Positions 849 to 17,074 of a stretch of DNA of 20,172 bases are shown in pieces (position 1 is the first letter of the stretch; every line of letters begins with the position of its first letter). The translations under genes and the position numbers were made by a program. The DNA lies in IMG/VR virus record IMGVR_UViG_3300028644_000051, positions 1 through 20,172 of that record; one strand, 5' to 3'. This DNA is from a virus. The notes below the pieces were generated by a model. That model was not told the DNA's origin, made no database searches, and saw nothing but the letters and a program-made list of their open reading frames with translations.

Positions 849-1865
849 CTATCCCCTCCGCGGGGCCCGGATCCCGCCGGTGCGGTCCAGGAAGTCGCTG
901 ACGGCGCCGGTCGACCCGGACCCGCCGGGGACGCCGACGGGCGCGGCGCGTGCGGCCTCCGCGATGGTCGCGGCGTAGCTCTTCTCGGCCTCGATGGTCT
1001 CCGAGACGGCGGCCGTATAGGCGGCCTCGTCGAGGGCGTGGTCGTCGGTCATCGGCAGGGCCGTCCCCGCAACGAGGGCGCGGACGCGGGCCTCCACGGC
1101 CTCGTCGAGCTTCGCGGCGGCGATGCTCTCGGCGAGGATCTCCCGCGCGCGGAAGCCGGCGATCGTGGTCATGTGCTCGGCGATCGTGGCCTCGGCGGCG
1201 GCGTGAGCCTCCTCCAGGGTCGTGATCCGGGCGTCGCGCTCGGCGATCGCCTCCTCAAAGTTCGTGATCTCTTCGTCTACCATGTGCATCTCCTCCTCTT
1301 CGACGAGGACCGACCCGCCCGCGGCGGGCCTCGCGACCCAGTCGACGGTCACGGGCGGGAGCCCGTACTTCGCCGGGTCGTAGATCTCCTCGACGATCTT
1401 CCCCGTCCTCCCCTCGGCCGTCCCGGCGACCTCCCGGCCGCGGACGCGGTGCGAGAGGCCGATGGTCTCGGCGAGCTCCAGGATACGGTTGCGATACGTG
1501 GAGATCAACCGGGCCCGGGCATAGAGGCCCGCTCCGTTGGGTTTTCCCGTCTTCGGATTGATCGGGCCGACGGGGTCGAAGTGCGCTTCTTCACTCAGAA
1601 CAGACGCGATCGCGTTCAAGTCGCCGCCGGGTTGTTCGCGTAATGCGTTCGGCCCGGGGTGGTTCCAGAGCATGTGCGTCCCCTTCCGGTAGATGGAGGC
1701 CGCGCGCGTCAGAACGCTCTCTGAATAATAGCGCTTGTTCTTCGACCAGCCGGCTTTAATCACGCAGACAGGGATGGTTCCGTCCGCCGCGATCTCGGCT
1801 TCGACGAGGGGCTGAAAGTCCTCCTGAATCAGGACTCCCGGGCCGTCACCACCTGGCGATTTCAT
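849..1865 (-). CDS. Prohead maturation protease fused to a C-terminal coiled-coil scaffold (338 aa)
   Basis: N-half has VIKAGWSKNKRYYS, LWNHP (His) and IGLSH (Ser), as in HK97/assemblin-type phage proteases; C-half is an acidic Ala/Glu helical region; located upstream of capsid genes. Confidence 0.75.
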   Translation of the reverse strand: MKSPGGDGPGVLIQEDFQPLVEAEIAADGTIPVCVIKAGWSKNKRYYSESVLTRAASIYRKGTHMLWNHPGPNALREQPGGDLNAIASVLSEEAHFDPVGPINPKTGKPNGAGLYARARLISTYRNRILELAETIGLSHRVRGREVAGTAEGRTGKIVEEIYDPAKYGLPPVTVDWVARPAAGGSVLVEEEEMHMVDEEITNFEEAIAERDARITTLEEAHAAAEATIAEHMTTIAGFRAREILAESIAAAKLDEAVEARVRALVAGTALPMTDDHALDEAAYTAAVSETIEAEKSYAATIAEAARAAPVGVPGGSGSTGAVSDFLDRTGGIRAPRRG

Positions 1866-1941: not shown

Positions 1942-4308
1942 TCAGACGGTGTACGTCACCCGGATGCCGACGAAGTCGATCGCCGGGGCGCAGGTGCCCG
2001 CGGGGCTCGTCGTGGTCGCCGCGATCGCGACCCCGAAGTCGCCGTGGTTGATCATCGCAGGCGTCCAGGTCTCGCCCCAGAGGTCGCCCGCCGAGCCGTA
2101 GCGCGATATTTCGGGCGCGTCGATGGTCCCGGTCCACTTGTAGGCCTCACCGATCCACGCCCTGTTCTGTGCCGAGAGCCCGCCGCCCGGTTTGATCAGC
2201 TTGACCACCGCGTCGATGACGTAGTTCGTTGCATTGCCGTTGACCACGTAGCGCCAGACGTCGACGGCGATGGCCGTGATCGTCGCGTTCGGCGGTATGT
2301 TGAACCCGTATCCCTGCGCGACCAGGAGATGAGTAAGCCCCGCGCCCGGTTCCGTGGACGTTGCCCCGCCGTCATGCCGGATGATCTTGAGCGGGGCGAG
2401 CCAACCCTTCGTGCCGCCGTTGGACGGATCGGACCAGGCCACGTACGGCGCGGTCGGTTGCGACGCGAACGTCACGGACTGCGGGTAGTTGAACGCGTCC
2501 CGGACGCTCGTCGTCACGGTCTCCGTGGCCGCGACACCCTCGCGCCCGATGTACTCAAGCCGGGTGCCGTAGACCCGGTCCTCGACGACATAGTAATTCT
2601 CGCTGCAGTCGGTACACATTGGGCCGGCAGCGTCGCCGGATGCCCACGACCCGCCCATGACGATCGGGCCGTCACCGGAGTCCGGCGGGGTCCAGAGGTC
2701 GCAGCAGTACCCGGCCGCGCCGTTCGCCGCGCTCGGCAGGAAGAGGTATCGGGTCAGCGGCTCGAAGAGCAGGTCGGAGATGTAGCCCTGCTCCGCCGGG
2801 GTCGTGCCGACCGTGCGCTCCCACGCCCGGTAGAGCCAGATCCCCATCGCGGACAAGCCGTCGCGCGGCGCGATCTCGACGTAGTCGAACGGGCCGTTGA
2901 CGATCAGCCCGTCGGTCATGACGCCGACGTTGCCATAGAGATTCTCGATCCCGCGCCAGACGACCGGGGTCTGGCCGTCGGCCCCGGTGCCCTTCCCGGT
3001 GCCGTTCGTGCCGACGACCGTGTCGGCGGCGTCGGCGCCGGTCAGCTTGCCGGCAAAGCCCGTGCCGGCGGCGAGGTCGACGATCCCGCGCCCGAGCACG
3101 CTCTGCGTGTTCCATGTCTGGAACTCGATCAGCTGCAGCAGCAGGATCGCGCCGCGCGTCCAGACGTTCATCAGGCCCCAGCCCTGGCCGATGTTCTCGG
3201 CATACTCGCGCGCAGCATTGATATTGAACTTCACGAACACGACCGCGGAGCCGCCGATGGTCATGCAGTTCGCGCCCGAGGCCGAGCCGTTCAGGTTCTC
3301 GCTCCCGAACGTGCCCGAGACCTGGCGGAGGATGAGCGTGCCGGCCGCGTCTCCGGCGGCCCATGTGCCGGAGGTGAGGTTATAGTCGACGAGGACCGCG
3401 GTCACGGCCGAGGTCGCGCCCGTCAGGGTCTCGCCGACGGTTGGCGCGCTCGGCCCTCCGGACGTGAAGGCGAGCGCCCGGATCGACCCATTGCCCGTGG
3501 CCGGTTGGGCGCCGGAGAATGAATGGAGGGCCAGGACGGTCGAGGCGTGGGCCGGGTAGTCGCGATAGGCGAGCGCGGCCTCGTAGGCCCCCACATAGAT
3601 GAAGTCCCGCTCGACCCCGCCGCGCTGGCGGAAGGCCGGGTGGACCTCGAAGCCCGACTGGGGGACGGACGAGACCCACCAGCTATAGACCCCGGTCGCC
3701 GTGCGTTCGGCCTTAACCCAGAACTTCGGGATCTCCACCATGACGCGCCCCGCGCTCCCGTCGAGCGTGAGCCCGTCCCCGCGGGCGTTCGTCCCGCGCG
3801 TGACGGCCCCGGTCGCCGAGACCGTGACCCGCCGGATGTTGCCCCAGAGCATGTGGTTATCAAAACTATCGAACGGGAGCGATGGGATCGCGTTCCCCTT
3901 GTCGTCGATCAGGACGAGTTCGGTGTGGTTCGTGCCGCCGGCCCCCCGGTCCCACCGGACGCCGATCACCTGTTTCTCCATCAGATACCGGATGTTCTCG
4001 GCGAAGGCGATGTCGTCGAGGGCGCAATCGCCCCGGTAGACGGCGACCCCCGCGTCGTGCGCGACCGGGGCCCCGAGGGCCCCGTTGAGCGAGACGCCCC
4101 GCGTCAGGGTGTAGAGCGAGGTCGCGTCCATCGACTCATATCGAACAATCTCGTATTTGCCGGCGTCGTTGATGATGCAGACGTTCGGCGCGGGCGGAAG
4201 CCAGGCGGTCGTCGTCAGGTGCATCTCGGCCACTTCGCCGATGGCGAGGGGCTGGGTCAGATAGGCGTCGGGCGAAAATTCGGCCGGCGGGAGCATTTCA
4301 CGAACCAT
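1942..4308 (-). CDS. Multidomain fibre/adhesin protein with a C-type-lectin (Mtd/FGE-like) core (788 aa)
   Basis: N-terminal virion-attachment-type domain (LPPAP...EIVRY...LTRG...AH.AG..V); DGS.G.VMVEIPKFW, HPAF...YVGAYEA, WRGIENLYGNV and GGSW..G..AG...G.RLEY motifs; extra C-terminal beta domain (YGFNIP..ATI, DLWG.TWTP..IN..DFGV). Confidence 0.72.
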   Translation of the reverse strand: MVREMLPPAEFSPDAYLTQPLAIGEVAEMHLTTTAWLPPAPNVCIINDAGKYEIVRYESMDATSLYTLTRGVSLNGALGAPVAHDAGVAVYRGDCALDDIAFAENIRYLMEKQVIGVRWDRGAGGTNHTELVLIDDKGNAIPSLPFDSFDNHMLWGNIRRVTVSATGAVTRGTNARGDGLTLDGSAGRVMVEIPKFWVKAERTATGVYSWWVSSVPQSGFEVHPAFRQRGGVERDFIYVGAYEAALAYRDYPAHASTVLALHSFSGAQPATGNGSIRALAFTSGGPSAPTVGETLTGATSAVTAVLVDYNLTSGTWAAGDAAGTLILRQVSGTFGSENLNGSASGANCMTIGGSAVVFVKFNINAAREYAENIGQGWGLMNVWTRGAILLLQLIEFQTWNTQSVLGRGIVDLAAGTGFAGKLTGADAADTVVGTNGTGKGTGADGQTPVVWRGIENLYGNVGVMTDGLIVNGPFDYVEIAPRDGLSAMGIWLYRAWERTVGTTPAEQGYISDLLFEPLTRYLFLPSAANGAAGYCCDLWTPPDSGDGPIVMGGSWASGDAAGPMCTDCSENYYVVEDRVYGTRLEYIGREGVAATETVTTSVRDAFNYPQSVTFASQPTAPYVAWSDPSNGGTKGWLAPLKIIRHDGGATSTEPGAGLTHLLVAQGYGFNIPPNATITAIAVDVWRYVVNGNATNYVIDAVVKLIKPGGGLSAQNRAWIGEAYKWTGTIDAPEISRYGSAGDLWGETWTPAMINHGDFGVAIAATTTSPAGTCAPAIDFVGIRVTYTV

Positions 4309-5318: not shown

Positions 5319-5359
5319 TCCCTCCTTACGCTAAAATTTCAACCCTCCCTATTTAATAA
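5319..5359 (-). promoter_or_regulatory. Putative promoter and SD site for the fibre cassette
   Basis: Minus strand TTATTAAATA (5350-5359) followed by an AGG-rich SD before ATG 5310. Confidence 0.5.
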
Positions 5360-6251
5360 TGGCGTAAAATTCGACGGGTGCCGGGTTCGGGGACCGGGCG
5401 AGCATCGCCCGGGCCCGTTTCGTTGCCACCCGGTAAATCGTAGTACACCGGCACGCGATGTGGAAAGGAGAGCGCTGGTGCTCGACGTTGTCCTTCTGAA
5501 GGTGGGTTGTGAAGGGTTGGTCGAGGGGGATCCACTTCTGTGCCTCCTTTGCCAGACATTCAGCGTCGACCCGGTCGTCTCCCACGGTGATCGACGACTT
5601 CTCAATGGGGATCCCCTTCTTCGCGATGGTGTCCGCGACCTCCCGGCTCGCGGCCTCGTAGGCGGTGGCGGTCTCGTACGTGGCGATGAGCTCGGCCCGG
5701 TTGCGGAGGTGATGCTGGGGGACCGGGGTGCCGAACGCGGCATACCGGGCGACCATGCGGGCCGCGATCTCCGTGTAGGAGGCGCCCTCATAGAGCCCCT
5801 GGTAAACGATCCCCTTCATGATCTTCAGGGTCGTGGCGTCGATCTTCTTGATCTCGTTGAGACAGTAGGTCTTGAGGTATCTCTGGGCCGCCGGGTTGCG
5901 AAGGGAGAAGGACATGGCGTACCCAAAATCGAGGAGCCGGTGCTTGATGGCGCCCTCCATGGCCGCCATCAGGATCTCGCGCATGGCGTCGGCCGTATCG
6001 ACCGCGAACTCGTCGAAGATCGTGATCATGAGCCCCGCGACGGCGTCCCCGAGCCCCTCGCGACAGACGGACTCGTTCAAATGGGCGCCCCGTTCGCGGA
6101 GTTTTCGCTCCAGGACGATCCGCTGATTGTCGAAATGCACACCGGCCACCCGGGCCATGCGCGACCGGAGCGGGGCGAGGAAGAGCTCGCGCCGGGCCAC
6201 CTCGACCCGGACGAGGGCTTCGGCCGCGGCCTCCGCGAGGGCGAGGGTCAC
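5349..6251 (-). CDS. Phage head morphogenesis protein, MuF/SPP1 gp7 family (300 aa)
   Basis: RAELIATYETATAY, TVGDDRV, WIPLDQPF and FHIACRC motifs; GTG at 6251 overlaps the upstream stop (GTGA), so I place the start there rather than at 6341. Confidence 0.85.
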   Translation of the reverse strand: MTLALAEAAAEALVRVEVARRELFLAPLRSRMARVAGVHFDNQRIVLERKLRERGAHLNESVCREGLGDAVAGLMITIFDEFAVDTADAMREILMAAMEGAIKHRLLDFGYAMSFSLRNPAAQRYLKTYCLNEIKKIDATTLKIMKGIVYQGLYEGASYTEIAARMVARYAAFGTPVPQHHLRNRAELIATYETATAYEAASREVADTIAKKGIPIEKSSITVGDDRVDAECLAKEAQKWIPLDQPFTTHLQKDNVEHQRSPFHIACRCTTIYRVATKRARAMLARSPNPAPVEFYAIIK

Positions 6252-6463
6252 ACCTTCCGCCCCCAGAGGTCCACGATGGTCACCGCGGGCGCGTCGGCCG
6301 TGGCGACGGCCCCGGGGCGCGGCCGGAACTCCCCGCACCATTGATCGCGCGAGACACAGGGGTAGCCCCTCCCGGGCCAGGGCGGGTGCCGGCGGCAGTC
6401 GCCGGTCCCGAGCTTCGCGTCCTCAATGGCGGCGAAGCGGCAGTCCTCGCACCGGGGCGGCAC
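6248..6463 (-). CDS. Small Cys-rich protein (CxxC...GxCR...WCGEF), 71 aa
   Basis: Four conserved-looking Cys; coupled to MuF by a GTGA overlap. Confidence 0.7.
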   Translation of the reverse strand: MPPRCEDCRFAAIEDAKLGTGDCRRHPPWPGRGYPCVSRDQWCGEFRPRPGAVATADAPAVTIVDLWGRKV

Positions 6464-6589: not shown

Positions 6590-7624
6590 TTACCCTTCAT
6601 TCTTCGGCTCCTCCGCGATCACGTCGATCATGAGATACGGGCGGCTCATCATTCCGTCCAGGTTGACGATCGACTTTCTGATGATCTTCCACTTCTTCTT
6701 CCGGGGATAGAGGATCTCGTACTCGTCCGTGTTCATGTACCGGGCGGGCTCGTCGTTCCTGGTGAACGCCCGGAGGAGTACGCCCTTGTACAGGTGGTTC
6801 GCGTCGCCGACGGTCGAAGAAAAATCGCGCGAGATCCGGGCCGATAGCGACCACGACTGATAGCCGGCGTCCGTGTAGAAGTCCCCGACCTTCGCGGCCA
6901 GGAGGCGGGCCCCGGTCGTGTCGCCGACCCCGCGGAAGATCTGATGGCCCTCCTCGACGCGCCCGATCTTAATGACATAGTCGAGGTGGGGCATAACCTC
7001 CATTTCCATGTCGAAGTCGGAGTCGAGGGCCCCCTTCGCCTTGTCGCGGCAGTAGTTGTTAATCTCGTTGTGAAACTCCGTCTGGTACCCCAGGAGGGTG
7101 TCGAGCTCGATGTCGCTGATCTCCCCGTTCTGTTGGGCGAGCTCGTGTGGGATCCACTTCGGCGACTCATACAGGTAATCGCCGATCGCGTCGTCTTCTT
7201 TATCGCCCCACCCGGCCACGTCGACATAGCCCTCGTCCCCGGGCTTGAGGACGATCGGGGTCGCGCTCGTCTCGGGGTCGGTCGCCGTCTCCCCGTCGCC
7301 TTTCGGGTGCCCTCCCGGCAGGTCTTCGATCCGCGTCCCCTTGGGGCAATCGCCGGATATGCAGACGCGCCGGCCTTTGATGGTGCGCCACTCCGTCCCG
7401 GGATACGCTTCGGCCTCGGCGATGGCCGCGAGGGGCTCGAACCGAATCCCGTGGTCGCCGTCGACGGGCGAGGTGTGCTTGTTCTCGCCGTCCCAGATGG
7501 CGAACGGGATCCCGTCGGGGAACGCGGCGCACTTGAACCGCGTGGTCTCGTCCAGGTGCCGGCAATGGGCGCACACCGGGGAGTAATACAGGTGCTCGTG
7601 TGCCGAGTCGTCAATCCCGATCAT
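6590..7624 (-). CDS. ADP-ribosyltransferase (R-S-E, VIP2/exotoxin-like) with an N-terminal Cys/His metal-binding domain (344 aa)
   Basis: Y....HNEINNYCR, IFRGV (Arg), GYQSWS (STS-like) and DEYEIL (ExE) motifs; N-terminal CAHCRH...CAAFPDGIP..I..G...H..P..GD.GI.FEP; ATG 7624 overlaps the portal stop (ATGA). Confidence 0.85.
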   Translation of the reverse strand: MIGIDDSAHEHLYYSPVCAHCRHLDETTRFKCAAFPDGIPFAIWDGENKHTSPVDGDHGIRFEPLAAIAEAEAYPGTEWRTIKGRRVCISGDCPKGTRIEDLPGGHPKGDGETATDPETSATPIVLKPGDEGYVDVAGWGDKEDDAIGDYLYESPKWIPHELAQQNGEISDIELDTLLGYQTEFHNEINNYCRDKAKGALDSDFDMEMEVMPHLDYVIKIGRVEEGHQIFRGVGDTTGARLLAAKVGDFYTDAGYQSWSLSARISRDFSSTVGDANHLYKGVLLRAFTRNDEPARYMNTDEYEILYPRKKKWKIIRKSIVNLDGMMSRPYLMIDVIAEEPKNEG

Positions 7625-10134
7625 CGTATCCCCATCCCCTTTCCGCGGATCCACCGGGTGTAGTGAATCCCGGGATACTCGGACGCCACGATCTGCATGG
7701 TCTCGTGTGTGTGCTCATTGCTCGCCTCTTTCTCGCCCATCTCTCCAGACCGGACCTTCGGGCGATATTTCGCATACAGGGAGCCCTCGGCGACCGCGTG
7801 CCGGGCAAGGGCCAGGTGCGCGTCGTGATCGGAGTACGCCGTTGTGTCGAGGGAGAAGACGTACTTCGGCGAGACGACGACGTGCTCGGCGATCCCGTGC
7901 GTTACGGTCATCGCGAGATCCTTATCCGAAAAGGAATTGTCGCTCGGGTGGTTGTGGATCGCCGTGCATCCCGGGAACTTCGCCGCGTCCTCGGGGTCGA
8001 ACGGGACGCCTCGCACGTCCCCGGTCCCGTAGAAGACGGTCGAGCCGTCGGGGGCCACGACGAGGAGGCTCTCGACCCGGTCCTCGGCGTGCCATTCGGT
8101 GAACTCGTCGAGCCGTTTCCGCACGGCGGCCGGCCGGCCGCGCTCGTCGACGGGCCCGGGTGCCAGTTGCTCCGGTGCCGGTGCCGGTTCCGCCCCGAGC
8201 GTCGACTGGGCGGTCCCGGGGCCCATCGGGCCCGTGCCGGCCCCCTTGTCCTTAATGTAGACCCGCCGGCCGTCCTTCAGGGTGACCCACTTCCCCGGGG
8301 CCGTGGGATCGAAGGCTTCGGCGAGCTCCGCCTCCACCAGGGCCGTCCGGGCGACCTCCTGGAGCGCGGTCGCGACGGCCGAGAGCGACTCTTCGATCCC
8401 TTCTTCGACGTCGTTGTCCCGGGAGCGCTTCGTCGGCTTCTTCACGCCCTTCTTCGCCGGCGGCGCGTCCTCGTCGTCCTCGTCGGGCTCCTCCCCGCCG
8501 AGCTTCGCGGCCTGGGCCTGGCGGGCGAGCTCCAGCTCGGGCGGGTTCTCATGCCGTTCAACCTGGCGGGCGATGTCCTCGTCGTCCATCTCGGCGATCG
8601 CATCGTCGACGTTCGGGATGTTGAGGGCCCGCAAAAGCAACCGCTGGAAGGTGGCCCGGTCCATGATCCCGGCGAGAGACCCCGTGCCGGCGGTCGCGGC
8701 GCTGATGATGGCGGCGACCTCCGAGACCGGGTCGTGTTCGAGGATCGCGGGGAACTCGACCGTGACCTCGGCGACCTCTTCCCGGACGGGCCCGAGGTTC
8801 GCGTCGGCGGCCTCCTTCTTCGTCGCCTTCGTGCCGGGCGCGGCCTTCGCGGCCCGGGCTTCCGTGACCTCGCGATCCGTCTCGTGGTCCTTCACGACCC
8901 GGCGGACGGAGACGAGCACCTGGCGCCGGCCCCAGTCGTCGAACTCGACCTTGCCGGTGAGGGGGGCGAAGCCGTCGGCGAGCACCCGGGCCTCGACCGC
9001 GAACGACCCCAGGAGGGTGAGGGTATCGACCCACCACGCCTGACGGTCGAGCACGGCGAGCTCCAGGGGGCGCTCCATCGTCTTCGTGGTCGCGAGGTTC
9101 CCCGTACTGGGATCCCCGAGGAGGATATGCTCGGGGACGTCCGTGTCGGAGCACACCATGAGCGCGAAGCGGCGGGCCTCGTCCGCGCTCGTGGCGACCC
9201 CGGCCGTCCGGATCGGCTCCATGGTGACCCCGGGGGTCGAGGCGAGCGTGGACCCGGCCGGGATCGGCGTCCTCTTCTGGCGGTCGACGATGTCCGCGAC
9301 GGCGCGGGCCGCGGCCGGGTTCGCCCCGGTCGCTTTCCACGCGAAGGTCGCGAGGGCCGCGTTGATGCTCGCCACGTTGCTCAGGTGTTGCGTGTAGGCT
9401 TTGCCCCACGGGATCCCCGCCACGATCGCCGGGAGGCCGTACACGCCCTTTCCCGCGCGCGGGAGGGGCGCGTGGTAGAGCCGGTCGGTCCAGACGACGG
9501 GCGTCCCCCCGATCGTCTTCGGTTGCTTTTCGGGATTATGCCCGAGCGCCGGATACCAGTAGGTTTGGCTCTTTCCCGTACTCGTGCCGTCCTTCTGGAC
9601 CGTGTACTCCGTAAACGTCCGTTTCCAGTACCAGACCTTCCGCGGGTTTTTCGGGTCGCGGAGGTAGCCGGCGATCTCGCTGATCGGGACGGTCACGACC
9701 TCCACGGCGCCGAGCTCGTCGACCTGGCAGAGTAAGAATAAATTGCCGCCGATCTGGACCTGGATCTCCTTCTCGACCCGCCCCAGGTGGCCGAGCTCTC
9801 CCTGGTTTCGTTCGAGCCAGTCGGTGAGGACCGCGTTGACCTCTACCTGGTCCGAGGTGATGGTGACGCCCCGGCCCCAGACGAAGTGGCTCTTGACGTT
9901 GACGGCCCGGCGGATGAGGGCGTTCGCGTGGTACGCCTCGTAACAATTCCGCGCGGCCTCGCGGATCTGATCCACTGAATACTCGTCCTCGCCGTCGCCG
10001 AGCGCGAGGGTGAGGGTGAGGGGGTCTTTCCACGAGGCGTTCGCCGAGACGGCCTCGGTGAGTGAATCCTCGATAAACGTTTCTAATTCATCGATCCGTT
10101 CGGCGATCACCCGGTTGGAGACGCGGGCGGCCAT
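7621..10134 (-). CDS. Portal protein fused to a C-terminal JAB/MPN-like domain (837 aa)
   Basis: Portal-type N-terminal 550 aa (LIRRAVNVKSHFVWGRG, DVPEHILLGDPSTGNLAT..TMERP); acidic/basic low-complexity linker; then VESLLVV...IHNHPSDNSFSDKDL. Confidence 0.85.
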   Translation of the reverse strand: MAARVSNRVIAERIDELETFIEDSLTEAVSANASWKDPLTLTLALGDGEDEYSVDQIREAARNCYEAYHANALIRRAVNVKSHFVWGRGVTITSDQVEVNAVLTDWLERNQGELGHLGRVEKEIQVQIGGNLFLLCQVDELGAVEVVTVPISEIAGYLRDPKNPRKVWYWKRTFTEYTVQKDGTSTGKSQTYWYPALGHNPEKQPKTIGGTPVVWTDRLYHAPLPRAGKGVYGLPAIVAGIPWGKAYTQHLSNVASINAALATFAWKATGANPAAARAVADIVDRQKRTPIPAGSTLASTPGVTMEPIRTAGVATSADEARRFALMVCSDTDVPEHILLGDPSTGNLATTKTMERPLELAVLDRQAWWVDTLTLLGSFAVEARVLADGFAPLTGKVEFDDWGRRQVLVSVRRVVKDHETDREVTEARAAKAAPGTKATKKEAADANLGPVREEVAEVTVEFPAILEHDPVSEVAAIISAATAGTGSLAGIMDRATFQRLLLRALNIPNVDDAIAEMDDEDIARQVERHENPPELELARQAQAAKLGGEEPDEDDEDAPPAKKGVKKPTKRSRDNDVEEGIEESLSAVATALQEVARTALVEAELAEAFDPTAPGKWVTLKDGRRVYIKDKGAGTGPMGPGTAQSTLGAEPAPAPEQLAPGPVDERGRPAAVRKRLDEFTEWHAEDRVESLLVVAPDGSTVFYGTGDVRGVPFDPEDAAKFPGCTAIHNHPSDNSFSDKDLAMTVTHGIAEHVVVSPKYVFSLDTTAYSDHDAHLALARHAVAEGSLYAKYRPKVRSGEMGEKEASNEHTHETMQIVASEYPGIHYTRWIRGKGMGIR

Positions 10135-11389: not shown

Positions 11390-11761
11390 TCACGCCCTCC
11401 GGCGGATTGCAGCCACGATGCGCTCGAATACACTATCCGACAACCCCTTCTGATTGAAGGTTTTTGTCTTCACGTCGTACCAGACCTTTCCGAATTGGAG
11501 ATCCGTGGCGAGCGCCCTGGCTTTGCTATTGCTGATAGCCACGCCGTCGATAGACGCCGACGAGATGTTGCCCGTCCCGTAATAGGTTACATCGAGGCCG
11601 TAGAGCGACCGGAGATCGTTGAAGTAGATCCGATGGTTGTCCCCGCCGGTCCACTCCTTTCCGATCGCTTTCAGGCGCTCCAGATCGTCCGCGGGCGCGA
11701 TCGCCGCGTTCTTCGCGGGCGCCGACCCGGCCCCCTTGCTCGATGCTCCGTTACCTCCCAT
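11390..11761 (-). CDS. Hypothetical phage protein with N-terminal MGGNGASSKGAG tag (123 aa)
   Basis: Start set at ATG 11761 (SD GGCGGTGA); body has KEW.GG..HRIYFN...ISNSKA...KVWYD, a pattern I recognise from uncharacterised phage proteins. Confidence 0.85.
   Translation of the reverse strand: MGGNGASSKGAGSAPAKNAAIAPADDLERLKAIGKEWTGGDNHRIYFNDLRSLYGLDVTYYGTGNISSASIDGVAISNSKARALATDLQFGKVWYDVKTKTFNQKGLSDSVFERIVAAIRRRA
11726..11761. repeat. 36-bp exact repeat, copy 1 (encodes MGGNGASSKGAG)
   Basis: cccggcccccttgctcgatgctccgttacctcccat, identical to 15621-15656. Confidence 0.97.
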
Positions 11762-12718: not shown

Positions 12719-12882
12719 GCGTACCCCTCCCGCCAGGCGATCGGGCCGGGCCCGTTGCCGGTCTTCCGGTCGGCCGCGTGCGAGACCTCCAGGGCGGCCT
12801 TCGCCTTCGCGATCGCCTCGGGGACCGTGTCGCATTTGCCGGTGCGGTGCGCGAGCACGGGCCCGCCACGCCCCGAAGCCAT
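12715..12882 (-). CDS. Hypothetical microprotein (55 aa, MASGRGGPVLAHRTGKCDTVPEAIAKAKAALE...)
   Basis: Not in the ORF track; TGATG overlap at its start and GTGA at its end fill the gap exactly; high GC3. Confidence 0.6.
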   Translation of the reverse strand: MASGRGGPVLAHRTGKCDTVPEAIAKAKAALEVSHAADRKTGNGPGPIAWREGYA

Positions 12883-13133
12883 CAGTCGTCATTGAGCAGA
12901 TCCTTCGCGCAGCGGTTGCAGACGAACGCCGCCTCGCCGTCAACCCGGCAGACGTTCAGCTCGGTGTATGGGTAGCCGCAGACGTCACAGGTCGATTTGA
13001 GCGGCACCTTCCGACCGAGCACCTCGATCACAGGCGCGGGCCGCGGGAACTTCCGCTGGCAGGATGGGCAGGTGATCATCTCACCCTTTGCCCGCGTCTC
13101 CCACTCGTACCCGCACTTGGGGCAGGTTGCCAT
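12882..13133 (-). CDS. Double zinc-ribbon protein (CPxCG type, 83 aa)
   Basis: CPKC, CPSC, CDVC and CNRC; GGAGG SD. Confidence 0.88.
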   Translation of the reverse strand: MATCPKCGYEWETRAKGEMITCPSCQRKFPRPAPVIEVLGRKVPLKSTCDVCGYPYTELNVCRVDGEAAFVCNRCAKDLLNDD

Positions 13134-14330: not shown

Positions 14331-14511
14331 AATAGAGCGCGAACGAGAGGCAGAGGTCGCACATGAGGACCGCGTCGCCGTCGACCCGGACCACGTTGAC
14401 CTTCTCGAAGCATCGGTCGCACATATCGCACGCGGCCCCGTTGGCCTTCTTATCGGGCCGGAGCACGAGGCGCCCCAGGGGCTCCACCACGGCCTCACGG
14501 GGCCGGCTCAC
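14329..14511 (-). CDS. Zinc-ribbon protein matching the C-terminal half of the double-ribbon paralogues (60 aa)
   Basis: GTGA overlap with the DUF4417 stop; VEPLGR...CDMC...VNVVRVDGDAVLMCDLC aligns to IEVLGR...CDVC...LNVCRVDGEAAFVCNRC. Confidence 0.75.
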   Translation of the reverse strand: MSRPREAVVEPLGRLVLRPDKKANGAACDMCDRCFEKVNVVRVDGDAVLMCDLCLSFALY

Positions 14512-15275
14512 GCGAGCGCCTCCACGAGCTCCCGCCGGGGCCCGTCCGGCGTCTCCAGGTGCACGAGGGGCCCGTCCTGGGGGATGAGCCGGGCGTCCCG
14601 TCTGACATATTTGTAGAGGGGCGAGACCTTCGCGACGAGGTCGGGCTTGTAGGGGTAGAAGTGCTCCGGCACCTCCCCGAGGAGCTTCTCGATTCTCCCG
14701 TAGCATATGACGGCCCGCGGGTGGATCCGGTCGAGCATCTCCTTGAGCCCCGCCTTGAACATCGCCCGCGCCTCGCGCTCGCGGTGGACGCCGACGGTCG
14801 AGACCGCGACCATGGACCCCTCGGGGATCCCGTCGAAACAGAACGAATACGTCTTGGGCCCGGCCCACGAGACGATCGGGATCACGGGGATCCCGTTCGC
14901 TTGCCAGTAGGCGCCGAGGAGGCGCGAACGGTAGACGTTATTCCGCTGGACGTGGATATTCCAGTCGCGGAAGAGGGAGAAGTCGGGCGAGAATATCCCG
15001 GCGAACGCCTGGATCTTGGGTAAATAAAACTCCGGCCGGCGCCAGAGTTGTTCAAATCGATAATCCTCCGTGTAGAGGTGCACGAACTTCCCCGCATAGA
15101 GCCGGGGCCGGCCCTCCCAGATCATGATCTCGGCCGGCGGACTCAGGAGGGTGTCGTGGATGATCGGCATTTCAGAATCATCCGTGACGTCGACATAGTC
15201 GAGAAGCCGGGTGTTCTGGGTGTCGAGCGACCCGCACGGCTTCACGCAGTTCCGCATGGCATAGCCGGCGCCCAT
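14508..15275 (-). CDS. DUF4417-family protein (255 aa)
   Basis: VHLYTEDYRFEQLW, SPDFSLF, NVYRSRLLGAYWQANGIPVIPIVSW, FCFDGIP and VAVSTVG motifs, characteristic of DUF4417. Confidence 0.85.
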   Translation of the reverse strand: MGAGYAMRNCVKPCGSLDTQNTRLLDYVDVTDDSEMPIIHDTLLSPPAEIMIWEGRPRLYAGKFVHLYTEDYRFEQLWRRPEFYLPKIQAFAGIFSPDFSLFRDWNIHVQRNNVYRSRLLGAYWQANGIPVIPIVSWAGPKTYSFCFDGIPEGSMVAVSTVGVHREREARAMFKAGLKEMLDRIHPRAVICYGRIEKLLGEVPEHFYPYKPDLVAKVSPLYKYVRRDARLIPQDGPLVHLETPDGPRRELVEALA

Positions 15276-15656
15276 CTACGTCGCCTTCTTCCTCTTCCGG
15301 GCGTCCGCCGCCTTCTTCCGGGCCTTCTCGGCGTTCGCCAGGGCCTTATCGATCGTTGATTCCATCGCCTTCACGGTCGCCGGCCCCCCGCCCTTCTTGG
15401 GGTAGCCGTACCGACTCAGCCACTTGAGCTGGTCGTAATAGAGCGGAGCGATGTAGCTCCCGTCCGTCTTTCGCCGCAGGATGATCCCGCGGTAGTTGTA
15501 ATCAACGAACCCGTTTTGTGCGGCGAGCTTGCGCCCGGCAACGGTCGCAGTCTCGGCCGGCATGTCGCGCGCCGGCATCGTGTAAAACCGCTTCGATGTC
15601 ACGGGGACGGTTGCCCCGCCCCCGGCCCCCTTGCTCGATGCTCCGTTACCTCCCAT
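15276..15656 (-). CDS. Basic hypothetical protein with N-terminal MGGNGASSKGAG tag (126 aa)
   Basis: SD GGAGGGTG; stop abuts the DUF4417 ATG; Lys/Arg-rich tail ARKKAADARKRKKAT. Confidence 0.85.
   Translation of the reverse strand: MGGNGASSKGAGGGATVPVTSKRFYTMPARDMPAETATVAGRKLAAQNGFVDYNYRGIILRRKTDGSYIAPLYYDQLKWLSRYGYPKKGGGPATVKAMESTIDKALANAEKARKKAADARKRKKAT
15621..15656. repeat. 36-bp exact repeat, copy 2
   Basis: Identical to 11726-11761. Confidence 0.97.
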
Positions 15657-15724: not shown

Positions 15725-17074
15725 TCACCAGGACGTGATCGGAGCGGGCACCTCGTCATAGACCGTGGCCTCGTATTCAATGTCGAGCATCAGGTCCGTT
15801 ATGGCCCACACCAGGGCGTCGACACGATCCGGCGACCGCATACCCTGGCCCGGTACCCACTCTGTCATTTGATCTTCGAGCTCGGCGAAGACGCCGACGT
15901 GATGGACGAGCCCTTGAGCATACAGGGCGCTCACGGGGTCGGCGCGGGCTTCTTTGCTATGGGACGCCCGGACGGCCCGGTACGGTACAAAGACGTTGGC
16001 CGCGTTCGCGCACGTCCCGACCACATACCCAACCATCTCGCCGCCGTTGTTGACCTCGCCCACGACCTTGTTCGCCTCCCACCGGGAATAGGCGCTCACG
16101 GCTTGCGCGCCCCACTCCCCGGGCGTCCCGCGGATCGTCACGTCGTCGAGGACGTACCCGTGGCCGTCGGCACCGAGTCCCACGACGAGGATCCCGGTCT
16201 CGGCGGACTCCTCTCCGCTGGACGCTTCGGGGTCGACGCCGACGACGATCCGGACGAGCTCGGGGAGGGCCGATACCCGGTTGGCGTCGATGATGGCCCG
16301 GGTCCAGAGGGCCCCGGGGTTGTCCTCCAGGAGCTCGGCGTTCAATTCCTGCCGGCCGAGCCGCGTCCCCTCGTATTTCTTGATGATCTGACGGAAGAAG
16401 CCCGGGGCCAGGTTGGCCCGGTTGTCGTAGGTCGAGCCCCGAACGACGATGCAGAACGGATCGGCAACGAGATCCTTGATGATCTTGGTCGGCCGCGGCG
16501 TCGTGGTAATGCAGCACTGGGGGTTTTCTCCCAGGCGGAGGCCGAACTGAAGCATATCCCAGGTGTCGGGGTATTTCCAGGCGGCGAGCTCGTCGGCCCA
16601 CGCCCAATGGAACGCGGGCCCGCGGAGCGCGTTCGGCTCCTCTCCCGAATAGAGGAGGGCCGTGGACCCGTTCGGCCATTCCAGCCGGCGCTTCCCGGGC
16701 CGGTATTCTGGCATGAAGTCCTCGGGACTGTCGGCGAGGATCCCCGAGACCCCCTCGACCATGACGTCGCGCACGTCCGCCGCGGTCCTGGCGACCATGG
16801 CGCCCCGGCTCCCGGGCATCTCCCGGGCCTTCTCGATGCACCACTCGGCGCCGCTCCGGCTTTTTCCAAACCCTCTGCCGGCCAGCATGAGCCAATACGA
16901 CCACTCACCGGCCGGCGGGAGTTGGTTATCCCTCGCCAGGAGGAGGCGCCAGTCCGTCGCCAGCCTCTTCGCCGTCTGAGGGCTCAGGCTCTCTATGAAC
17001 GGCCGGCGGAGCTCCGGCGGTAAAGACCTTATCGAGGACCGAAGCGAGCTCGGCGTGATAGTTTCGGACGTCAA
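15725..17074 (-). CDS. terL: Terminase large subunit (449 aa)
   Basis: Walker A LAGRGFGKS, Walker B AWADE, CCITTTPRP, nuclease motifs VVGVDP and SPDRVDALVWA; TTG start uncertain. Confidence 0.96.
   Translation of the reverse strand: MTSETITPSSLRSSIRSLPPELRRPFIESLSPQTAKRLATDWRLLLARDNQLPPAGEWSYWLMLAGRGFGKSRSGAEWCIEKAREMPGSRGAMVARTAADVRDVMVEGVSGILADSPEDFMPEYRPGKRRLEWPNGSTALLYSGEEPNALRGPAFHWAWADELAAWKYPDTWDMLQFGLRLGENPQCCITTTPRPTKIIKDLVADPFCIVVRGSTYDNRANLAPGFFRQIIKKYEGTRLGRQELNAELLEDNPGALWTRAIIDANRVSALPELVRIVVGVDPEASSGEESAETGILVVGLGADGHGYVLDDVTIRGTPGEWGAQAVSAYSRWEANKVVGEVNNGGEMVGYVVGTCANAANVFVPYRAVRASHSKEARADPVSALYAQGLVHHVGVFAELEDQMTEWVPGQGMRSPDRVDALVWAITDLMLDIEYEATVYDEVPAPITSW

Follow-up and report, generated by a model that had tools for sequence, protein, structure and literature searches.

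A viral portal protein with a predicted C-terminal JAB/MPN domain as a putative swappable, capsid-carried effector

The window analyzed here is the complete IMG/VR viral contig IMGVR_UViG_3300028644_000051 (20,172 bp, ~66% GC, completeness estimate 39%), whose genes lie mostly on the minus strand. Its gene at 7621–10134 (minus strand; stop codon at 7621–7623) is one open frame coding for 837 residues, in which a portal protein continues at its C-terminus into a domain predicted to be a JAB/MPN metal hydrolase. The locus thus raises the question of what such an enzyme would be doing on a portal. The answer favored here, which we judge probable by a modest degree, is that the domain is a portal-borne, plug-inhibited hydrolase effector of polymorphic type that is carried in the capsid.

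The protein is a portal, as a preliminary description of this DNA had claimed. Portal family phrog_10963 matches residues 50–556 (E 2.9e-60), and a tblastn search with the portal recovers annotated portals from 48 phage records, with the top-ranking matches in the Methanoculleus viruses Blf4 and L4768 (33% identity); none of the Pfam portal models matches the 837-residue protein. The portal core, residues 1 to ~607 (8314–10134, minus strand), is delimited by these matches and by relatives of ~540 residues (P0160–P0167, 44–53% identity) that stop at residue ~601, just before the linker. They share with it the portal terminal helix, residues ~575–607 in the structure model. The “long acidic/basic linker” described earlier at about residues 520–575 exists as a stretch, but it is a lineage-specific insert (about residues 545–575, 8410–8502) inside the portal’s own C-terminal region, with the terminal helix coming after it, and is not the linker to the added domain. 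The gene stands in a head/packaging module together with the terminase large subunit gene (TerL, 15725–17074), a MuF gene (5349–6341) and a head protease gene (849–1865), all on the same strand; the ~5.6 kb between TerL and the portal is taken up by small genes. Pfam and PHROG scans find no MuF match in the 837-residue portal protein, MuF being a separate gene.

The fusion recurs in independent assemblies. The same 837-residue frame is present in a 50.7-kb contig of a metagenome-assembled genome (MAG; L002), a 54.7-kb metagenome contig (L005) and an ENA contig (L006), each with 10 nucleotide differences from the window, mostly synonymous, that change only one residue. The 90% cluster holds four distinct 837-residue sequences on more than 20 contigs. 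The portal-JAB fusion is thereby corroborated, and a sequencing error that joined two separate genes, which the preliminary description had named as grounds for abandoning it, is ruled out by the three assemblies.

The C-terminal domain, residues ~664–837 (7624–8145, minus strand), is predicted to adopt an MPN fold of the RadC-like JAB type. Direct reading and a motif scan place the metal-site motif H727-N-H729-P-x5-S736-x2-D739 at 7918–7956 (minus strand), with HNHP (residues 727–730) at 7945–7956 exactly as described before; the full signature begins with E688 (codon 8071–8073, minus strand), a glutamate that opens strand β2 and is predicted to be catalytic. A HMMER search of 1.8 billion representatives with the C-terminal 208 residues of the portal (query P0002) returns 284 relatives at E≤1e-3. 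When 85 short ones are aligned (A2), H727, H729 and D739 are invariant and E688, N728, P730, S736 and Y825 are at least 90% conserved; E688 is invariant in alignment A4. Because of these 284 relatives and the conservation at the site, the HNHP motif is not a chance occurrence, and the earlier proposal of a JAB metal site is borne out by the conserved metal and catalytic residues.

Structure prediction and fold comparison agree with this assignment. The AlphaFold2 (AF2) model built from the 85-sequence alignment (predicted local distance difference test, pLDDT, 92.2; predicted template modelling score, pTM, 0.83) has the JAMM layout, in which the glutamate starts a strand, HxH ends a strand, and the serine and aspartate cap the next helix. 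The best PDB matches in Foldseek are RadC 2qlc (E 2.6e-3, probability 1.0), PfJAMM1, AMSH, Cap3 and AF2198. VIA-align, which is independent of Foldseek, returns JAB/MPN proteins as all of its top 11 chains (Z 5.4–7.2), followed by the related deaminase fold. Sst2 leads (Z 7.2; 4.5 Å over 122 residues), ahead of PfJAMM1 (Z 6.9; 3.5 Å over 109), Cap3 (Z 6.5; 3.8 Å over 110) and RadC (Z 6.2; 3.5 Å over 99), with Rpn11, a bacterial ubiquitin-like (Ubl) protein deubiquitinase (8tyy), CSN5 and AfJAMM at Z 5.4–6.1. The structural check called for in the preliminary description therefore comes out in favor of a JAB/MPN fold. Sequence models are less telling: none of the curated JAB models PF01398, PF14464 and PF04002 detects P0002, a PF04002 search of the window at E 10 is empty, and the family profile finds only chance coiled-coil matches among PDB sequences. 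Pfam RadC matches 3 of 50 long homologues (best 1.3e-6) and, weakly, 9 of the 85 short ones, and some homologues weakly match Prok-JAB. The protein-atlas neighbors of the domain are unannotated clusters, then Phage_min_cap2, Prok-JAB, RadC and DUF4329. Relative to RadC, the domain has an additional helical hairpin of ~55 residues and a conserved C-terminal strand containing Y825. We conclude that it is probably a divergent, RadC-leaning JAB with an intact site, outside every curated JAB model.

Relatives of the domain are spread mainly in bacterial phages with MuF. Phage_Mu_F is carried by 16 of the 50 long homologues, and others carry ADP-ribosyltransferase (ART), NUDIX or 2H domains; the description of JAB domains as MuF-associated tips fits this distribution, in which the domain sits mostly at the C-terminal end of a MuF head protein. 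A degenerate DNA motif for HNHPxGxSFSxxD, used to find loci in IMG/VR, occurs in at least 115 contigs, and the 81 open reading frames (ORFs) taken from 80 loci all match the family hidden Markov model. In a local phmmer comparison, none of the 150 best domain homologues carries the phrog_10963 portal; a tblastn search of the domain against 50,697 GenBank phage records gives no match, and a related-locus search with P0002 in viral contigs gives no relative. Literature searches found no characterized phage JAB effector or RadC activity. On the low-GC 85-kb phage contig of L004 (7659–10699), the JAB is a free 297-residue protein, and the overlapping next gene codes for a 716-residue protein with an N-terminal F-D-D motif (…NIFDDMY…).

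The junction between portal and JAB is a site of exchange. The cassette linker, residues ~608–663 (8146–8313, minus strand), comprises a conserved segment, EAELAEAF..PGKW-VTLKDGRRVYIKDKG, and then a Pro-rich disordered spacer. The conserved segment ends in WVTLKDGRRVYIKDKG, which forms a β-hairpin, and is followed by the spacer and the JAB domain. In the model the hairpin motif WVTLKDGRRVYI (8254–8289) has a pLDDT of ~70 and the spacer one below 55. The motif, WVTLKDGRxVxI, is common to P0158, P0159, P0004, P0010 and P0173, and its general form W.T..G..V.I is lineage-specific (3 of 150 family representatives). Between the window and the related locus L003, DNA identity (92.6%) ends at window position 8239, right after the linker motif, and the linker DNA of the window also matches a second linker within a downstream gene of L003. 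An internal start at M637, which would give a free JAB, was considered and has no convincing signal.

What follows the linker differs among nearly identical portals. In P0158 the core is 98% identical over 600 residues, and the same linker leads into a C-terminal ART domain (PF03496); in P0159 the core is 96% identical, and the C-terminal JAB is just 26% identical to that of the window; L009 carries a second ART variant behind the same linker. Four different cassettes are thus found on portals that are 96–100% identical. To judge by these sequences, the linker is a recombination joint, and the C-terminal position of the portal is a polymorphic, swappable cargo slot.

A similar mosaic extends into the region between the portal and MuF. 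The next cargo gene (6590–7624, minus strand) codes for 344 residues and is the whole of the island in the window. Its product consists of a predicted plug peptide, a CxxC..C.AFP.GIP zinc module (7505–7573, phrog_33375-like), a second linker, WRTIKGRRVCI (7358–7390), and an ART domain (PF03496, E 4.5e-5, a borderline score of 23.3 against a cut-off of 23.4). The ART part and the C-terminal cassette of portal P0158 share 45% identity. The far border of the island is the MuF (SPP1 gp7-like) head protein gene (5349–6341, minus strand; PF04233, E 7.4e-9; phrog_2468), which has no cargo. The L003 island has two genes, the first coding for a zinc module, linker, domain X, linker and third JAB, and the second for the ART protein. 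That first gene (L003 10448–11995), between portal-JAB and the ART gene, codes for a 515-residue cargo protein with two linkers and two payloads in the order zinc module, WVTINGNHVLI, middle domain, WVTLRDGRRVFI and third JAB variant, and each junction is an ATGA overlap. At L005 10511–13990, and likewise in L002, the island reads zinc module-linker-zincin (HEYGH), zinc module-linker-unknown domain, DNA methyltransferase (SPPY motif) and MuF; the island thus differs from that of the window, its cargo genes having been exchanged between genomes with ~99% identity in the portal region. The portal-MuF region is therefore, at the level of sequence, a mosaic cargo island in which the same linker is reused before other enzymes.

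The gene directly after the JAB is the second component of the proposed system. Its ATG (7622–7624) overlaps the portal stop as ATGA, and its first 16 codons (MIGIDDSAHEH...; 7577–7624, minus strand) encode the predicted plug peptide. A separate tiny partner ORF in the window was considered and rejected, there being no room where the portal stop overlaps the next ATG. A φ-D-D peptide followed by the zinc module also stands directly after both JABs of L003, and the zinc module directly follows all four distinct JAB genes seen in the virus group and in the independent G066 provirus taken together; in G066 the partner is a free 79-residue protein. In the one case in which the zinc module follows a zincin gene rather than a JAB, the φ-D-D peptide is absent. 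Among the IMG/VR loci with downstream room, 72 of 73 have an ORF start within -40 to +30 nt of the JAB stop. The 60 distinct partners from IMG/VR have a median length of 68 residues, and at least eight of them are the same zinc module; [ILVFM]DD occurs in the first 30 residues of 16 of the 60, against 1.3% of control ORFs (Fisher p ~1e-15).

Complex prediction places this N-terminus over the active site. The JAB domain was modelled, zinc included, together with residues 1–72 of the ART protein and reached an ipSAE of 0.74 (runs 0.86, 0.68 and 0.74), whereas the best of three controls gave 0.01; in calibration, 58 of 80 solved complexes attained that mark, as did 2 of 110 mismatched pairs. At least 75% of the contacts are common to the runs, and the partner pLDDT is at least 79. 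In the predicted pose, partner residues 1–16 lie on E688, H727, H729, S736 and D739 and on the loop of residues 707–714 (E59, H98, H100, S107, D110 and loop 78–85 in domain numbering), and I4, D5 and D6 of the partner come closest to the metal site. The prediction supports binding of the φ-D-D N-terminus in the JAB catalytic cleft. As a candidate immunity element, the partner is coupled to the JAB gene by the ATGA overlap and is predicted to cover the active site; here it is part of another effector.

These elements suggest the following scheme. The portal C-terminus would have captured a cargo cassette, made up of linker and JAB/MPN zinc-hydrolase domain, as a portal-borne form of the MuF/polyvalent design of capsid-carried effectors. 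The JAB would be made together with the downstream protein by way of the ATGA stop/start overlap, and the φ-D-D peptide would occupy its cleft, with the aspartates beside the His/His/Asp metal site, as a substrate-mimicking plug. Such a plug may be an immunity-like element that keeps the enzyme silent in the producing cell and in the virion. A portal is a structural protein present in 12 copies, and to our knowledge its C-terminus points into the capsid interior in all solved portals; from this stoichiometry it is reasonable to expect up to 12 JAB copies per virion. Packaging, cutting of the linker and ejection with the DNA are suggested by portal topology and MuF precedent. After ejection the JAB would be freed, presumably by a cut in the disordered linker, and would hydrolyze a host target early in infection, most likely at a peptide or isopeptide bond. 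Our leaning towards a substrate of this kind rests on the extended conformation in which the plug is predicted to lie in the cleft.

Several points weigh against this scheme. The fold-match scores are moderate (Z<8, Foldseek E ~1e-3), though unanimous; P0002 has no match among Pfam, NCBIfam and PDB sequence models even at E 10; and the spacing from HxH to serine is x6, one residue shorter than the classical JAMM x7. The plug is a model prediction made with its own 5-row alignment and with zinc, so that the calibration is only roughly applicable, and the same predicted pose could be that of an enzyme-substrate complex. The controls for motif enrichment are crude, many of their ORFs being spurious, and redundancy among the partners was removed only approximately. 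Covalent cargo on all 12 portal subunits must be cut loose. Against a peptide substrate in particular, it has been argued that RadC-clade JABs have no groove for a Ubl tail and that nucleic acids may be what they act on (PMC5512222, PMC3482391).

Other functions can be set beside the one proposed. A RadC-like enzyme directed at nucleic acids or nucleotides might process or protect the incoming viral DNA end, or degrade host nucleic acids or signaling nucleotides. The best Foldseek match is RadC 2qlc, the Pfam links lead to RadC, NUDIX, 2H phosphoesterase and ART domains are found alongside the JAB in relatives, and a position on the portal or MuF puts the domain beside the DNA end; the argument about the missing groove covers both the RadC and Tox-JAB clades, which may be nucleases (PMC5512222, PMC3482391). 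We nevertheless regard this function, a serious rival, as unlikely, since the literature found documents no nuclease activity of RadC/JAB domains, VIA-align puts the peptidase JAMMs Sst2, PfJAMM1 and Cap3 level with or above RadC, and the partner is predicted to run in extended form through the cleft and past the 707–714 loop, which suggests a peptide-shaped site. A role in assembly is quite unlikely, whether the portal JAB docks the N-terminal peptide of the next cargo protein or trims or releases cargo in the capsid as a maturation or releasing peptidase. It would suit the predicted binding of JAB and plug, the location of the plug at the N-terminus of another cargo protein (ART), the L003 series of portal-JAB, plug-Zn-X-JAB and plug-Zn-ART, and the recurrence of the same linker, a possible cleavage site, before every cargo domain; releasing peptidases are known in polyvalent proteins and polymorphic toxins. 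Most phages, however, have a free partner of ~68 residues with nothing attached, so docking is not general; ART replaces JAB on near-identical portals, so JAB is dispensable for assembly; head maturation has a protease gene of its own at 849–1865; and docking alone needs no strict conservation of catalytic residues.

The preliminary description had proposed removal of ubiquitin-like modifiers, in the form of an injected deconjugase that would strip Ubl modifiers such as archaeal small archaeal modifier proteins (SAMPs) or antiviral conjugates of the Bil/Bub/Cap2 type from host or viral proteins. The fold does match PfJAMM1, a SAMP2 protease, as well as Cap3 and the bacterial Ubl deubiquitinase 8tyy (Z 5.6–6.9); the host is probably a methanogenic archaeon, given the related portals in Methanoculleus viruses and in proviruses of 6 of 300 other genomes of the order to which the MAG with the identical gene belongs; and the predicted plug fills a peptide groove. 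Nothing specific favors this role, however, and we consider it very unlikely. The Pfam links are to RadC and, weakly, Prok-JAB, so that the sequence is nearer RadC than the Ubl-specific JAMMs. The family is found mainly in bacterial phages with MuF, and a SAMP-specific role would therefore not be general. The coupled plug gives a layout of toxin plus immunity, and a harmless deconjugase would not be expected to have an inhibitor-like partner of its own. A Pfam scan of 20 window ORFs detects no Ubl, E1-like or E2 family, although targets could be host-encoded. Least credible, to the point of being nearly negligible, is an artefact of genes joined by assembly or sequencing error, or a decayed and inactive relic: the relatives P0004 and P0005, in which the JAB is on a separate protein of ~300 residues, might be cited for it, whereas the identical frame with mostly synonymous differences in three other assemblies, the four distinct cluster members, the conservation of all catalytic residues and the confident model speak against it.

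A further idea is that JAB-plug pairs serve as a non-covalent coupling by which cargo enzymes are daisy-chained onto the portal. Each JAB would grip the φ-D-D peptide of the next protein, whose own JAB would repeat this (as in L003), giving up to twelve strings that are inactive while docked and released on ejection. We regard this idea as unlikely.

Portal-JAB fusions are unusual, as was claimed earlier, but not unique. The search for other such fusions that the preliminary description had suggested yields one, L022, in a provirus of Methanomicrobiales, and other effector-portal fusions have been published (PMC5512222). At L022 3891–7106, a 1071-residue protein combines a PF04860 portal (E 6e-16), a similar linker motif, a middle domain and a JAB with 33% identity to that of the window, and a terminase gene adjoins it. 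Because this JAB sits on an unrelated portal family, the portal-JAB architecture arose at least two times. The search covered 301 genomes of the order Methanomicrobiales, to which the MAG with the identical gene, labelled Methanospirillum sp., belongs in the NCBI taxonomy, and related portals occur in six further genomes among the 300 others. One provirus portal, L023 5503–8151 on a 3.17-Mb contig (G230:C1), is a phrog_10963 protein with 35% identity and a RWVTINGAHIFI-type motif; its C-terminal extension of ~170 residues is unrelated and of unknown family, and no zinc module follows.

The Methanospirillum label of the L002 bin was rejected as proof of the host. Its contig JAAYEG010000006.1 (L012–L014; 50.7 kb) has ~67% GC from end to end, no host-like flank and no terminal repeat, and looks like a free viral contig. 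A methanogen host for this tailed virus is still probable because of the similarity to Methanoculleus viruses, the 62–65% GC of some related proviruses, and the digesters, bioreactors and fermentations from which the viruses come.

Other genes of the window complete the picture of the module. The head-maturation-protease-like gene at 849–1865 (minus strand) belongs to phrog_15531. Between it and the MuF region, a gene at 1942–4308 (minus strand) codes for a 788-residue protein of phrog_5302, annotated ‘tail protein’, an odd order for a head module. Just downstream of the TerL gene, 14508–15275 (minus strand) encodes a DUF4417 protein (PF14386, E 1e-52; phrog_940, ‘nuclease’). Among ten ORFs scanned in the terminase-portal interval, the sole Pfam match is an 83-residue ORF at 12882–13133 (minus strand) with a double zinc ribbon (PF07191, E 2.3e-6). 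An exact 36-bp repeat at 11726–11761 and 15621–15656, which appeared as a secondary match of 100% when the window was compared with L005 and L002 by blastn, coincides with the starts of two small genes.

Capsid-carried effectors are known mostly from the MuF proteins of bacterial temperate phages. The present locus would mean that the portal itself can carry them, that its cargo slot is exchanged like the tip of a polymorphic toxin among nearly identical viruses, and that probable viruses and proviruses of methanogenic archaea share the design. It also gives a testable handle on a JAB family that is large and unannotated, one exact motif alone occurring in at least 115 IMG/VR contigs, and an enzyme with its own predicted plug makes co-expression of enzyme and inhibitor, and a substrate search, feasible. 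Should the plug double as a loading tag, it would be a new way to pack proteins into capsids.

Known systems resemble this locus in part. MuF polymorphic toxins (PMC3482391, PMC5576092) likewise place a swapped C-terminal enzyme on a head protein of the packaging module, with a small cognate gene directly after it and presumed delivery with the DNA, and the homologues of the window JAB are mostly on MuF. They differ in that the carrier here is the portal, with MuF a separate gene without cargo, that the partner is joined to the next effector rather than being a free immunity protein, and that the host is probably archaeal. Jamet et al. 2017 (PMC5576092) do not name JAB among their toxin domains; ‘JAB’ and ‘RadC’ occur 0 times in the text. 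Iyer et al. 2017 (PMC5512222) describe portal or MuF proteins fused to PBECR, 2H and InPase domains, for which they inferred packaging and injection, and find polyvalent proteins to be scarce in archaea. The fusion of an effector to a portal in a virion module, the repertoire of ART, zincin and JAB, and the split and merged multi-domain forms (P0006, P0173, L022) are alike; the JAB on the portal, the polymorphism between ~97% identical portals and the defined breakpoint in the linker are not.

At the level of the enzyme, the RadC-like JABs (PF04002; 2qlc) share the fold, the style of the HNHP...S..D motif, the upstream conserved glutamate and the association with incoming mobile DNA, whereas PF04002 misses the window protein at E 10, the motif spacing is one residue shorter, and the ~55-residue helical hairpin and Y825 strand are added. 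JAMM/MPN+ isopeptidases (PfJAMM1/HvJAMM1, AMSH/Sst2, Rpn11, Cap3, BilC-type) share the fold and catalytic constellation, with Z-scores equal to those of RadC, but have no sequence-level match, and no Ubl partner or conjugation genes are detected nearby among the window ORFs scanned. MuF toxins and portal fusions to other domains are thus already published; JAB as a phage-type cargo, its direct fusion to a portal, the swapping of alleles on near-identical portals, and a plug on the next cargo protein appear to be new.

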